NCBI GenBank assembly: GCA_002256025.1
Contig: NKIB01012282.1
Location: forward strand, 62,001 to 84,427
Length of the DNA stretch: 22,427 nt
Reading direction: 5' to 3'
Origin: Asterionella formosa
Taxonomy: Eukaryota
Part shown: positions 7,028 to 22,427 of the stretch, piece after piece
How positions within the stretch are numbered: position 1 is the stretch's first letter
How the letters are laid out: each line of letters begins with the position of its first letter
The notes under the pieces: model-generated
The model's database searches: none
What the model was told of the DNA's origin: nothing
The model's input: only the letters and a program-made list of their open reading frames with translations
Made by a program: the position numbers and the translations under genes

Positions 7028-7809
7028 TTTAGACTGCTCCTCTGAATCGTTATTCAAAGAATTGTGTGCTTCAGCACCCCTGTACTAGTAGCTAATTTAC
7101 TTGTTTAACCTCGTGTGGTTGCTGTCTCCTTCCCTTGTTGTCTTAGCTGCCAACTCTTGGTTGCTTGTTCGATTGAACTCTAGAAGCTAGAACTTAAAAG
7201 TCGCATTGTTGCTACATTAATCTCTCAGCTTTGACTCCTTCGATTTGCATTGCATGGTTTTTCTAGTGGATGAAGCTGCTTAAAACGAAAAGGGACGAAA
7301 AAACCTTGATTGGGATAAGAATTCCACACCCTGGTCTGGAGCCCTCCATCAAAAGAAACACTTGTTTCCTTAAGTACAAACTATGAAATATTTATGTAAA
7401 TTCATATATTGCTTTGCTACTCTATGATTAGTAGAAGAGCCTGGGTTTGCTTGGAAAAGACAACAATTTTAACCTGACTGAATAGATTGTGACACCAGCA
7501 TCCTTTGCATTCCATGACAAATCTGTTGTCTATCTATATTTCAAGTATCTTTCGTCAATTGAAAAGCACACAACTTTGTATTTCTTACAATCATGTATAA
7601 TGCATGAAGTCTACAGTCTACAAAGTGTTGACTATGCCTTGGGTCACCATTTGTCATGGAACCTGGCTGATAGCACCACTTGAAAACTCCTTTAAACCTC
7701 TATTTCACTAGCTATGTTCAATTGAATAGTACAACTAAATCCCAGATGAGCGGGTGGTTCATTATTGGAACTCATGAAATTTTATTGGGATGTGATGTAG
7801 TACAGCCAA

Positions 7810-8151
7810 AACCCAATACAGGGGCAACCTTGAATTGCAAAATGTTGACACCTTGAAATAGGAAATAAACAGAGCCCAATACAGGGAATACCTTGTATAG
7901 AATGATATTCTCATGACAAATAAAGGAACACCTTGAATTTTTTGGGCTTGACAAATAGACCTTTTGCTAATACAAGGTGAACCTGGTATTGGAATGGTAC
8001 ATCACCTTGTTTTGAAAAAAATATCAAATGACCGAAACCTTGAATTGGAAAACATTGCGACGCCGAATACAAGGTATGCCTGGCTTTGGAGGACAAAAAC
8101 CTGTTGAAATCGTACAAAAATTGCCAATACAGAGTACTTTCGTTTCCTGTG
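7810..8151. repeat. Array of ~12 short motifs (AATACAAGGT / ACCTTGWATT) in both orientations; probable transposon subterminal region ending ...TTTCCTGTG
   Basis: Forward copies at about 7813, 7876, 7967, 8063 and 8124. Reverse copies at about 7827, 7850, 7890, 7930, 7981, 8004 and 8037. Several are paired head-to-head. The end at 8151 reads CACAGGAAAC on the minus strand. Confidence 0.65.
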
Positions 8152-8157
8152 TATACT

Positions 8158-10396
8158 GGCAATCCCCACCCTAGCTATCGCCTTGCTTTTCGATGAGAAC
8201 TGTGGGTGTCTAAGTAATTTTTGGCTTCTTTAAGTAATTTTTTTATTTAGGGGCAATATGGGGCACATTGGATTTTTTGGCAGTCAATTTTAGGTTTGAG
8301 CAGTGGGACCATCGAGCAACGTCAGGAGTAGAGTTTTCATGGGAAAAAGTTTGGACACATCAAAAATGCATGGACCAACGAATATACCGGTACCGGTACA
8401 TGCATGAAAAATAGTTACACAAGAATGATTGGAACAAGCATCGAAAATTCGACACGATGTTGTTAAGCAACCAAAGTATGAAACGGAAATCGAAAGGTAA
8501 GACGTAAAAATGACAAGCAGGGAGTAGAGTAATAAGTGAAAAAGAAAATGGATCAGCGGAAAAATCGTGTGAAATTTTGTCAACGTATATTCATTAACAA
8601 TTGTCAACTCACACTTTTTGTCGTTGCAACGAAATTTCAAAAATTTTCAGATCGGGCCTGGAGGAGCAGAAACCGATGCCTGAATAGATTAAGAAGCAAT
8701 GCTGGTTTCTGAATTGGTTTGGACTTGTGGTTGTGGAGGTGTTGGAGGAGCAACAGCTTGATGGCGGAGGTTTCTTGGTGCTGGCGGCGCAGAATTCTGG
8801 CAGTATCCAGCAGGAGGAGGAGCAGGATGCGTCGAAAATTTACTGGCTGATGTGGGTGTTTGTGAATTGGAAAATTGAGGAGGAAATTTTCGATTAGGTT
8901 TATAGGAAGCAATGGAGTGATATGTTGTTGGTGCTGGCGAGATATGTTGCCCACATTGTTTGCGACCTGGAGACTTTGAAATCTTCTTGCAAGTTTCGAT
9001 AAAAGTGGCTTCCTAGCATTGGGAAACAGGAAAAGAATAATGTTAGTGTGTGTAAATTATACCTCGTACAACAACAATCAACTGGCAACATATTTCACCT
9101 CATTGGACAAGCTGGTTTGACCACTGGATACTGATTTCTTGCATCGTCAGGAAGTGGAGGAGTAACATGATAATAGCCTTCATCAACATTCTGAAGAGGA
9201 AGAAATACGTTTAATAATTAGTATACTTGACCATGGCGGGAACTCAAATATGACAACAACAATCAACAAGCACATACCTGTCTACTCCTCCTTGTTGAAT
9301 ACAAGTTAATGCAGAACACCGGTTCCATCATGTTTCGGCTGCTTTGCAGAGTTTGCGATAGCTCATTGAGATTGACGACTTTTCGTTTGTCATTGTAGAA
9401 GATTATGCAGAAGTAACAAAAGTAATATTGTGATTAGAAAGCAATGAAACAATGCTATTGTAGGGCAGCGGAAAAAAAGCCAACATGTGAGCACTAAAAC
9501 TTGCTGCCGAGATCTGATTTGAGATAGTGTAGGACACGTAGAAAACATACTACAAAATTATGGTTAAAATTTAACGGCTGATCATATCTGACGAAAATAC
9601 CGGTTCCATGGCGAGATGGAAGCCTAACTTTGACCTACCATAACGCTTTGAGTTTTGACACTCAACAACTGATTGAGGTCGATTTTGAACAATCATTAAC
9701 TTATTTATCACCTCATATAAAATCTAGCGAAGGAGTTGACCGGAAAGGCTATCGGAAATCAACAGAAAGGGGAACCGAATTTTGGCGCCACTGTGACGAA
9801 GCAAGCACAATACGACAATATGAATCCCATAAAAAGTCGAATTATCCAACAACCAGCCAGATCCATTTGATAAAGAGTCGATGTTATAGACATCAATGAA
9901 CAGAGTTGTTATACCTCGGAGCATGCTGGATAATAGCAGGGATGTAAATAGAGGAATTGCCATGGACACTTTAAAGAAAACCATCATTTCGTGCCTTCAT
10001 GTAGCTCCTCGTACTCTCGTCCAATTTCGGCAGTCGATTTTCCTTAAGTAAAGGGCAGTCAATTGAGGGGCAATAGATATCATTAATCAAATTCCCTTAA
10101 ATAAACGGCAGTCGATTTCGGCAATAAAATCTAGGGGCCAATGAAAATATTGAAGGTAGTTTGGCAGTCGAAAAACGGAGCATATGAAATATCCAAAATA
10201 TGTTTTATATGATGGGCAATTGCAGGATTGAGTAATCCAAAAACTGTACATATGAAATCTTCAATATATGTTTTATATGATGGGCAATTGGTGAGTTCGT
10301 ATCCAACATACAAAGTACATAAAACAGGTTTTCAATGTTACCAGAAAGGGCAATGTCGTTGCGAAAAGCTTGCCGATAGCTAGTTTGTGAATTGCC
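8158..10396. mobile_element. Non-autonomous or decayed TIR DNA transposon, ~2.24 kb, superfamily unresolved
   Basis: The left end 8158-8192 is GGCAATCCCCACCCTAGCTATCGCCTTGCTTTTCG. The reverse complement of 10362-10396 is GGCAATTCACAAACTAGCTATCGGCAAGCTTTTCG (28/35 identical). GGCA(A/G)T subterminal motifs occur at both ends. A second left end occurs at 21946. No matching target-site duplication is visible. Confidence 0.75.
10181..10290. repeat. 42-bp imperfect direct repeat in the right subterminal region of the TIR element
   Basis: CATATGAAATATCCAAAATATGTTTTATATGATGGGCAATTG (10181-10222) versus CATATGAAATCTTCAATATATGTTTTATATGATGGGCAATTG (10249-10290). Confidence 0.9.
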
Positions 10397-10399
10397 TAG

Positions 10400-10582
10400 G
10401 TAATACCCTACTCGGGAGGAGTCTGCCTACTCGTAATCTTGTGTGCTCGGCTTGGGAGGCCCTCGCAGGGTGACCTTCTCGCAGCGCCGGGGGCGCCACT
10501 CATTCGGTCAACCTACCCGCGCCTCCCAAGCCTCGAACACAAGAATACTCGCAGGGAGTCTCCACCCTCGGTCGCGTATTAC
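10400..10582. repeat. 183-nt GC-rich imperfect palindrome (hairpin), probably a miniature palindromic element
   Basis: It is bounded by GTAATAC...GTATTAC. Paired blocks include TCTTGTGT/ACACAAGA, GGCTTGGGAGGC/GCCTCCCAAGCC, TGACC/GGTCA and GCGCC/GGCGC, with the centre at about 10490. Confidence 0.85.
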
Positions 10583-10757
10583 TGGTACCTTCAGTATCTC
10601 ACCTGAATCAACATCCAAGGATTGTTGAAGTGGTAATAAATAGTCATCAAAAGCTTGCTCATTTTAAATCTTTGACAAATCCCGTCCCCTGCTCATTTCA
10701 ACTTCCACTATGCATCATACAACCTGAACTTAAAAGAGTTCACGCACCACACCTGCC

Positions 10758-11951
10758 ATGGTCCGCTTATCTGTTGCGAAAATTTGCTCTGGTTATCTAC
10801 TGCTTATTGTAACTACCTTTGCTTCCGTGCATTTCCTTCACCAAAACATCGCTCGTCATTGGGACTCTGTAAGCAGCAACTCGGGAAGACATGTCGGGAT
10901 GCCGCTTGAAGTTTCTTCGCTCTCTGCCACCAAAGTACTTTGGATTTGGGATGGTCAACAGAATAGGTCAACTGCTGTTTGCGGAGACGAACCCTTTCAC
11001 GAACTTCCTAGTCCGCCTCGAACTGCGAATCAAGCATTCTTTGGACGAGGTGCAGATGACCTGGCATTTTCCAACCAATCTAACCTGGCTGTATGCAACA
11101 TTGATTGGAACAGACTTGGTCTTCATTTCGACATTCACTTCCCTCACACTATGGAGACAGTCTTTTTATGTTGGTCATGGTGGTGGATGCATCCAATGCA
11201 ACAAAAGGTACTCGAAGTCCCACCTGACTTTGAAGGGAAAATCAAAAAAAGTTCCTTCAACTCTGGATTTTTCGAATGGCTGAGACGAGATGTTATCTTT
11301 ACGCAGCAATCGACGGAATCAATGTCAAGGGTACAAGTCATCCCGCGCCGTGAGGCACGTTGGTTTCACACACCTCCGTACGATGCTCAGGCATTGAGGG
11401 ATAGTGTAGTTGATTACCACTTTCACGGACGAAATATATCTGGTTGCAATGTCCGAGACGAGTCCTTAGTAAGAATAGGAATCTTGAATCGAAAGAAGAC
11501 TCGGGATATTGTAAATATTGTTGAACTCGTGGAGGCACTACAAGTTCTGGTAACCACCAAAATTACCGTTGCTTACTTTGAAAAAGCATCTTTTAAGGAT
11601 CAAGTTGATTTTTTCAGTTCCATTGACATTCTGGTATCTCCTCATGGCGCACAACTCACGGGCGTTATATTTATGCCACGATGCGGGGCATTTTTGGAGT
11701 TGTTTCCAAAAAGCTATTGGATCCCTAATTTCTTCGGGGATATGGCACTAGGTGCAGGTCTGAGGTACAGTTATTTGTACCTTGCCACATCGGACAAGGT
11801 AAAGGACATGGAGGAGTCACAATCCAAGGGCTTTCGATTTAGGGCGCGAGCCCGTGCTGCACACTTTCACGTTCCCGTGGCACGGGTGGTAAGCGAAGTA
11901 TCATGTATGATATCTCAGTGGTCATCCTGTTGCACAGAAAAAGGGCATTAG
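10758..11951 (+). CDS. Glycosyltransferase family 61-like (DUF563) type II membrane protein (397 aa)
   Basis: An N-terminal signal anchor is followed by C-terminal GT61-type motifs: ILNRKKTRDIVN, FEKASFKDQVDFFSSIDILVSPHGAQLT and LELFP. The ORF is intronless. Confidence 0.85.
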   Translation: MVRLSVAKICSGYLLLIVTTFASVHFLHQNIARHWDSVSSNSGRHVGMPLEVSSLSATKVLWIWDGQQNRSTAVCGDEPFHELPSPPRTANQAFFGRGADDLAFSNQSNLAVCNIDWNRLGLHFDIHFPHTMETVFLCWSWWWMHPMQQKVLEVPPDFEGKIKKSSFNSGFFEWLRRDVIFTQQSTESMSRVQVIPRREARWFHTPPYDAQALRDSVVDYHFHGRNISGCNVRDESLVRIGILNRKKTRDIVNIVELVEALQVLVTTKITVAYFEKASFKDQVDFFSSIDILVSPHGAQLTGVIFMPRCGAFLELFPKSYWIPNFFGDMALGAGLRYSYLYLATSDKVKDMEESQSKGFRFRARARAAHFHVPVARVVSEVSCMISQWSSCCTEKGH

Positions 11952-21945: not shown

Positions 21946-22250
21946 GGCAATTCCCGCTCCAGCTATCGTCTTTTCTAAGTAATTTTTAGGCTCTAAGTAA
22001 TTTCTTAAGTAATTTTTATTTAAGGGCAATATGGGGCACATCGAATTTTTCGGCAATAAAATTGCCGATTTTAGCATGACAACCAGAATAACGGTAATAT
22101 GCATACCGGTAGAGATGGTACAACAAGCGTAAAACACACGAGAATGATTGTAACATGCAACATCAATGAAAATTGAACATGATGTTTGGAGCAACCAAAG
22201 TATGAAATGCGATGTAATAAGTAGCATCAAATGAGAAATAGAAAAAATTG
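21946..22250. mobile_element. Left end of a second copy of the 8158-10396 element family (probably continues beyond the window)
   Basis: It starts GGCAATTCCCGCTCCAGCTATCG and shares TAAGTAATTT repeats with the first copy. GGGCAATATGGGGCACAT (22024-22041 = 8251-8268) and AGCAACCAAAGTATGAAA (22190-22207 = 8466-8483) are identical and collinear. Confidence 0.8.
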
Positions 22251-22427
22251 TTTTGGGTTAGAAATGAAATAAAAAATAAGAGTTCCAATGGAGACGCAGC
22301 TATGCATTGTGAATCATTGTAGTACTACTTACACACCAGGCAACATTGACTTTCCATCACCACACAATCGAAGACCGAAATAAGAAGGGAAAAGCTGAAC
22401 CCAATCTTGACCTACATCGTTATGTAG

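Follow-up and report, generated by a model that had tools for sequence, protein, structure and literature searches.

A terminal hairpin with tandem G·A loops in a Crypton-like tyrosine-recombinase transposon family of Asterionella formosa

The stretch analyzed here, called the window, comprises 22,427 nucleotides of the Asterionella formosa genome (assembly GCA_002256025.1, contig NKIB01012282.1, forward-strand positions 62,001 to 84,427), and positions are counted from its first letter unless a copy at another locus is named. It carries an imperfect hairpin of 183 nt between an inverted repeat and an open reading frame (ORF) of the glycosyltransferase 61 (GT61) type. A preliminary description, made from the letters alone, took the repeat for the end of a transposon and the hairpin for something separate beside it, for example a miniature element. 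The distances given there are correct, as 4 nt separate the hairpin from the inverted repeat, whose last position is 10395, and 175 nt separate it from the start codon of the GT61 ORF (ATG at 10758). The partition into two elements did not hold: almost certainly, the hairpin is itself the end of a recombinase transposon, whose parts are collected in Table 1.

Table 1. Features of the transposon copy and its surroundings in the window
Feature	Position	Strand	Evidence
Terminal inverted repeat starting GCAAT, the element's other end	8159..8180	+	274 exact pattern matches, control 0
Non-autonomous tyrosine-recombinase DNA transposon copy, subfamily A, 2.43 kb	8159..10593	- (recombinase sense in full-length copies, hairpin end first)	Sharp shared boundaries among copies
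Two AT-rich 55-nt direct repeats within the element, preceding the recombinase gene where copies are full-length	10168..10290	.	Repeat listing
Sub-terminal inverted repeat, pairs with 8159-8180	10374..10395	+	Repeat listing (35 nt, 80%)
Internal spacer of 4 nt linking the sub-terminal inverted repeat to the hairpin; CTAG (subfamily A) or CTCA (B)	10396..10399	+	Sequence
Terminal hairpin, 183 nt, five tandem G·A/A·G loops	10400..10582	-	Folding, conservation, covariation
6-nt insertion private to the window copy, reads TA-CTGG-TA, between hairpin arm and terminal spacer	10583..10588	+	Not in other aligned copies
Terminal 5-nt spacer CTTCA, last element bases	10589..10593	+	Hairpin-end counts, filled versus empty sites
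Target-site half in the host, GTA; its counterpart, ending in G, at 8152-8158	10594..10596	+	Target consensus
Host glycosyltransferase 61 ORF, bystander	10758..11951	+	Pfam PF04577 E 9.9e-17; single-copy depth in two DNA runs

A 196-nt hairpin query gave a full or near-full match at all 40 scored candidates (of 400) in the 68-Mb genome. At 30 fetched loci the left flank of the hairpin is common to the copies, while the right flank diverges past CTTCA-G-N-A. Because of this asymmetry, and because the other end lies at 8159, the repeat at 10374-10395 is sub-terminal and the element extends from 8159 to 10593. Exact pattern counts revealed 291 hairpin ends, a lower bound, and 274 inverted-repeat ends genome-wide, with 0 matches for the controls. 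In the recombinase sense the order of parts is terminal spacer, hairpin, 4-nt spacer, inverted repeat, recombinase gene, and inverted repeat, the hairpin part making up the first ~190 nt. The terminal spacer CTTCA is exact at 67 of 80 distinct hairpin ends and has at most one mismatch at 75 of 80. The internal spacer at 10396-10399, together with its flanks, constitutes an inverted copy of the end-to-end junction, and the AT-rich direct repeats are a possible promoter.

Judging by alignment, the window copy is derived from an element of ~4.2 kb with a Crypton-type (DUF3504-like) tyrosine recombinase: it is 71-72% identical to the recombinase-bearing copy L119 over about 9147-10265 and 8159-8827, and the catalytic core is missing between these parts. 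The private insertion at 10583-10588 is likely a cut-and-paste footprint that spoils this copy's end, and the copy is probably immobile. Its hairpin-end junction is present in contigs of two DNA runs; no empty allele of the locus was found among the 15 joints listed from contigs of four sequencing runs. At 21947-22427 the inverted-repeat end of another copy of this element, belonging to subfamily B, is present and runs off the window. Elsewhere in the genome, rearranged copies occur: in L008, L012, L128, L129, L294, and L301 the interior is inverted relative to the hairpin, which adjoins the terminal-type repeat, an arrangement that probably goes back to recombination, either of the two repeats with each other or at the internal site. 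At L025 (1385-1633) a hairpin end is folded back on itself as a tail-to-tail duplication of the outer arm.

Longer copies encoding a recombinase, for which the preliminary description had proposed to look, do exist. The recombinase fragment has 59 genome matches, many of the 30 recombinase loci examined show the inverted-repeat end 1.2-1.4 kb downstream, and in the full-length copy L115, whose two ends are separated by 4.2 kb, the catalytic exon lies 2.8 kb downstream of the hairpin and 1.4 kb upstream of the inverted-repeat end. The motifs of the R, H-x-x-R, H, Y tetrad are spread over two exons, which were aligned to the full-length homolog P0099, and a frame with the H-x-x-R, H, and Y motifs was found in one of 20 pattern-picked copies. 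GT/AG ends and the reading frame suggest an intron between the two exons. P0099 is 28-30% identical to both exons, and its predicted structure, with a high pLDDT (predicted local distance difference test) over the core, matches QRICH1 and Cre. The first exon has 264 relatives at E ≤0.001, its best atlas cluster is DUF3504/KIAA1958-like (0.96), and its Pfam match to DUF3504 (E 0.03) stays under the cut-off; a PDB sequence search with this exon gave 0 matches. The broad recombinase alignment was too divergent to serve as a search query.

No long ORF besides the recombinase was seen in the element copies examined. Eight frames of L163, a near-complete copy from a metagenome, matched 0 Pfam families and thus no reverse transcriptase, RNase H, or methyltransferase, with the reservation that the copies are damaged and a small decayed gene could escape; GCR1_C had no match in the Pfam searches of the recombinase exon and L163. 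Near the hairpin of L072 (4512-5777, minus strand) we observed an open frame of 421 aa for a pogo-like DDE transposase (DDE_1 E 1e-21, BrkDBD). It was rejected as a partner enzyme, being present at one of 20 loci.

The hairpin itself is built with great regularity. All ten phased sites of the preliminary description are in place, with CTCG at 10411, 10430, 10446, 10462, 10478, 10532, 10548, and 10567, CTCA at 10499, and CCCG at 10516; the CTCA is a product of CpG decay. The pairing of the arms over ~90 nt is no chance effect, as both strands fold far better than shuffled sequences, with z values of -5.8 (plus) and -7.6 (minus) as DNA and of -5.8 (plus) and -10.0 (minus) as RNA. The minus strand is thus the better-folding one. 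Loops of two facing pyrimidine pairs had been proposed; their sites were placed correctly, but on the strand with the weaker fold. On the minus strand every loop consists of CGAG facing CGAG, i.e., C-G, G·A, A·G, and G-C. A pyrimidine-GA-purine context favours the sheared form of tandem G·A. Very strong stacking has been reported for tandem GA-AG steps in DNA, in the sheared form (PMC8163305). The outer 7 bp of the hairpin are predicted to be one arm of a recombination site. An Rfam covariance-model search of 8000-11000 revealed no family for the hairpin, and one chance match (E 3.6) outside it.

Two subfamilies, A and B, allow for a comparison of hairpins. The alignment contains 15 of 27 full-length A copies and 27 of 30 B copies, all best BLAST hits without large indels; the 72% hairpins of L128 and L129 were too damaged and were left out of the covariation analysis. 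Between the two consensuses, 0 of 40 CGAG positions differ, compared to 35 of 143 other positions (Fisher p 7e-5), and five stem pairs switch from one Watson-Crick pair to another. Ten positions of subfamily difference give G·T on the minus strand versus one that gives A·C (p 0.006). In the pair counting, 90.7% of cells are paired and 104 cells are changed on both sides, while slid controls reach 32-45%; the structure was taken from the same consensuses that were used for counting, and the counts represent few independent events. Within subfamilies, CpG was found changed in 43 of 480 cells versus 36 of 1155 for other C/G in the 15 A copies, and in 36 of 918 versus 7 of 1998 in the 27 B copies, i.e., it mutates ~3x and ~11x faster, respectively. 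The CGAG words are intact in 108 of 150 (A) and 249 of 270 (B) cases. The earlier statement that the element keeps its CpGs is therefore true of both subfamily consensuses, where all ten CGAG words are intact, but not of the individual copies. A scan for the 16-nt-period pattern showed no third subfamily among the 100 listed of its 255 matches (control 16).

According to these alignments, the G·A loops are under selection. That the ordered mismatches do not stem from random decay had been anticipated, and a single, untranscribed copy or unconserved mismatches had been named as findings that would speak against it; the hairpin is multicopy, its loops are kept between subfamilies, and its stems covary. 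Hence we consider it very improbable that the hairpin is an unselected by-product, i.e., the fold-back of a short CTCG tandem unit whose symmetry is kept by template switching. Inverted repeats do correct themselves, the words decay freely after insertion in the proportions given above, and deletions are frequent, all of which would suit such an origin. Template switching, however, would remove the ten mismatches, which alone are invariant between the subfamilies, and five identical loops would arise by chance at about 1e-13 under a rough null, so that this explanation was already disfavoured.

Deletions of at least 10 nt affect the hairpin in 24 of 36 copies versus the adjacent 195 nt in 5 of 36 (p 9e-6), and the hairpin carries a deletion in 33 of 48 pattern-picked copies (of 60) that reach the sub-terminal repeat. 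Deletions thus cluster in the hairpin, as would suit its folding at the DNA level. This bears on the possibility that the rod acts as RNA, be it as a 5' leader or noncoding RNA whose G·A loops interrupt a long duplex to escape or tune Dicer, or as a small-RNA precursor. The minus strand is the recombinase sense strand and reaches its best z value, -10, as RNA, and the hairpin bin is covered by contigs of two RNA runs at depths of 182 and 230. Yet this cover is strandless and may be read-through from host genes, Rfam has no match, and the hairpin-centred deletions point to DNA folding. Moreover, the foot of the stem is the exact recombination arm, located at the very first bases of the element and upstream of the AT-rich repeats. 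We regard a role as RNA as improbable.

How the element inserts can be deduced from its flanks. The comparison of filled and empty sites proposed in the preliminary description was possible for paralogous sites (L096/L122 and L132 versus many uninterrupted copies), where filled and empty sites differ by the element only, with 0 bases gained or lost. These empty sites were supplied by nested insertions, none being obtained from the neighbouring repeat at ~7770-8152. Copies nested in family copies were seen at L065, L096/L122, L132, and L116; three of these insertions share one internal site close to the inverted-repeat end, and another occupies the internal spacer site. From 114 distinct inverted-repeat junctions, six with element-derived flanks were dropped. 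The remaining 108 show a purine at -1 in 107, T at -7 in 80, and T at -5 in 57. Among 73 hairpin ends with host flanks, G occupies +1 in 73 and A occupies +3 in 71; at +2, the A ends favour T (16 of 24) and the B ends C (46 of 49), in each case mirroring the subfamily's own arm. As read from these junctions, the element targets a loosely defined TRY-N4-GYA dyad and crosses over at the right edge of it (R|GYA).

This target also bears on HLE2 or Helentron-like rolling-circle elements, for which an HUH enzyme would act in trans and the recombinase gene would be cargo. The architecture fits that of HLE2-reverse, with a terminal hairpin, asymmetric inverted repeats, and no target duplication (PMC11417382), and a one-strand signature is found here as well. 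T|T insertion, however, is contradicted by a purine at -1 in 107 of 108 and G at +1 in 73 of 73 junctions, and we have rejected an assignment to this group. The recombinase is the sole recognisable gene; neither a Helentron RepHel nor a Replitron HUH gene was seen inside the element, and PF14214 and PF21859 are unmatched in the genome, which is a weak argument as both controls were silent. An origin of this kind thus appears highly unlikely. Replitrons differ furthermore in their RG target (PMC10288648).

The two ends treat their spacers unequally. Genome-wide, 291 hairpin ends carry the element's spacer and three another 4-nt spacer (control 1); of these three, one reflects a deletion of 1 nt and another is the internal spacer of the element itself. 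Of 29 A copies picked by BLAST irrespective of the spacer, 19 are exact, three are one off, three read otherwise, and four are unscorable, while CTTCA occurs at 0 of 108 host junctions of the other end. Had both strands been exchanged over non-matching spacers, roughly every second insertion should show the host spacer at its hairpin end. Spacer ownership hence points to the exchange of one strand; strongly biased repair may be another source of it. A tyrosine recombinase remains bound to the 3' end, whereas the spacer is released as a 5' end (PMC3458562). Given this polarity and the cut at the right edge of the dyad, the minus strand would be the cleaved one, and this predicted strand is the best-folding strand.

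With respect to known transposons, the element is a Crypton-like variant that shares three Crypton features and lacks one; no subgroup (F, S, A, I) is assigned. It resembles Cryptons in its size of ~4 kb, in a DUF3504-like tyrosine recombinase with an R-H-R-Y tetrad as the sole recognisable enzyme, in the short identity of end and target (GYA), in abundant non-autonomous derivatives, and in the increase of copy number (PMC3212892, PMC9977147). A diatom Crypton (CryptonS-1_PTri; PMC3212892, PMC9977147) and an active one (CryptonF-1_cRei; PMC9977147) are known. As in Cryptons, a reverse transcriptase is absent from the 0 Pfam families of L163, and a short direct repeat occurs without target duplication: the element starts with GCAAT and the target goes on with GYAR, the strict identity being 3 bp. 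Direct repeats of 4-6 bp and no terminal inverted repeats are attributed to Cryptons, with one 602-bp exception (PMC3212892). Here, in contrast, inverted repeats of 22-35 nt are found, one terminal and one sub-terminal, besides the hairpin of 183 nt with its G·A loops and the internal, inverted copy of the junction, and the ends are not TATGG or CTGTAAG. Our literature searches, which covered neither Repbase nor subscription papers, found no paper describing such a hairpin end in a Crypton.

The published Crypton model (PMC3212892, PMC13565253) has a double-stranded circle integrate, and applied here it would proceed classically or by one exchange resolved by replication, as in VGJphi; the CGAG(TA) words would be a phased duplex binding array, or the hairpin an extruded copying origin, with folding secondary. 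The junction, with its inverted arms, does qualify as a duplex site, the ten same-strand CGAG(TA) words show perfect conservation and a phasing of 15-21 nt, and the preference for C/T at -2 (C 42, T 31, A 24, G 11; n=108; A at 0.79 times background) is explained by one swap with the junction strand alone. A duplex array, however, needs neither words that face each other in register, nor compensatory stems, nor a bias of G·T over A·C, and the inverted internal junction copy is left unexplained. A duplex circle should also prefer A over G at -1, which is not seen, the ratio of A to G being 59:48, the background proportion (p 0.77). Altogether, we consider the duplex circle unlikely.

We lean slightly towards a folded single-strand exchange. 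The minus strand would be released as a single-stranded circle and then fold, hairpin arm pairing with arm and inverted repeat with inverted repeat. The joined ends on the minus strand would read TTGC-TGAAG-GYAAT, and this end-to-end junction (TTGC-5 nt-GCAA) would be set opposite the inverted internal copy (TTRC-4 nt-GCAA), creating a recombination site with a mismatched centre. The recombinase would swap this one strand with the double-stranded TRY-N4-GYA target, and replication would finish the insertion, such that copy number rises. A and G would occur at their background ratio at -1 because the target must pair with the junction T and the internal-copy G. Owing to the periodic CGAG/CGAG loops, in which the G·A pairs would be sheared, the minus strand could fold almost as a full helix; the plus strand and the duplex would stay a poor palindrome. 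The loops would then be a strand selector limiting the instability of a perfect inverted repeat. The broader proposal is more tentative, and we hold it with some doubt, namely that of a eukaryotic transposon lineage which combines the copying-out of one strand, a self-folding circle as recombination site, a strand-selection code of sheared G·A pairs, and integron-like exchange by a Crypton recombinase.

Several observations weigh against folded single-strand exchange. The folded model wants C and A equally at -2, where C alone is enriched, and the purine at -1 could be a protein read-out. The data are assembled contigs, in which a single-stranded or circular intermediate was not observed; head-to-tail junctions were rejected as proof of circles, since insertion into an existing end, itself a target, also yields them. 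One-sided exchange is possible with duplex DNA, as in VGJphi (PMC4246890). The covariation comes from essentially two subfamilies and one variant, hence from few independent events, and arm-to-arm conversion can also make inverted repeats covary. Folding and G·T bias cannot separate DNA from RNA; the minus strand also serves as the sense strand of the gene. In 14 of 48 copies a 101-nt deletion has removed three of the five loops; it is flanked by 13-nt direct repeats and must have arisen at least twice, because two sequence backgrounds carry it, and the full rod may be dispensable. A fully intact recombinase gene was not recovered among the copies. Relatives with flanking DNA were not found outside this organism or one very near: a metagenome scan gave four loci, all 98-99% identical, and three viral scans gave 0, bacterial genomes not being scanned.

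If folded single-strand exchange holds, the closest parallels are bacterial. The integron reaction attC x attI likewise involves one folded strand, an imperfect hairpin, an unpaired centre, a single exchange, and replicative resolution, with the strand being chosen by extrahelical bases (PMC3458562) rather than by tandem G·A loops. Here, however, the host is a eukaryote, the recombinase lies inside the mobile unit, and there is no attI or cassette array. The attP(+) of CTXphi also has two inverted recombination sites joined by a fold-back of 150-190 nt and one exchanged strand pair (PMC4246890), whereas the present element has its own recombinase, many degenerate targets, and no phage or rolling-circle genes. 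Bacterial SEs, from which strand-biased circles are made by tyrosine recombinases, need four genes, and their att sites are reported without inverted-repeat structure (PMC9345347). With DIRS elements the family shares a tyrosine recombinase and an internal segment complementary to both termini (here the inner hairpin arm and the sub-terminal repeat). An assignment to DIRS was rejected, as the 4-kb element has no reverse transcriptase, RNase H, or methyltransferase and its recombinase gene is apparently intron-bearing.

Regarding the surroundings, a link between the hairpin and the GT61 gene found no support, this flank being just one among hundreds into which the family has inserted. RNA contigs of GT61 start at 10723 and 10648, downstream of the hairpin, although contigs cannot fix a start. 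In two runs, coverage by strandless RNA contigs is modest over the hairpin and much higher over the inverted-repeat third of the element. There, at 8240-9190, contigs originating from many copies reach a depth of up to 7000 versus 157 for GT61 in one run, and a plus-strand GT-AG joint is seen at 8494-8649; this region may give rise to a spliced transcript that runs antisense to the recombinase gene. The word TACCGGTA (e.g., 10580-10587) occurs 17 times in the 22-kb window, and TA-4/5 nt-TA micro-insertions break many element copies; both resemble the footprints that a very active TA-targeting DDE transposon would leave on excision. Another dispersed repeat at ~7770-8152 has internal repeats of 25-40 nt and ends in CCTGTG, then often TA (40 of 40 scored matches). 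It is possibly a Tc1/mariner-like miniature inverted-repeat transposable element adjoining the transposon.

The copy in the window is probably dead and the GT61 gene a bystander, such that the significance lies with the family. The transposition mechanism of Cryptons is experimentally undemonstrated and a duplex circle is assumed, according to a 2026 review (PMC13565253). The family offers a defined enzyme, a 190-nt end, a target consensus, and a prediction of the cut strand, and thus becomes testable with oligonucleotides. Its recombinase bears on the ancestry of the domesticated DUF3504 proteins QRICH1, ZMYM, and KCTD1. If the proposed mechanism is true, recombination of a folded single strand, as in integrons and CTXphi, would extend to the eukaryotic nucleus, and tandem G·A pairs would represent a natural device that lets a palindrome fold on one strand only.
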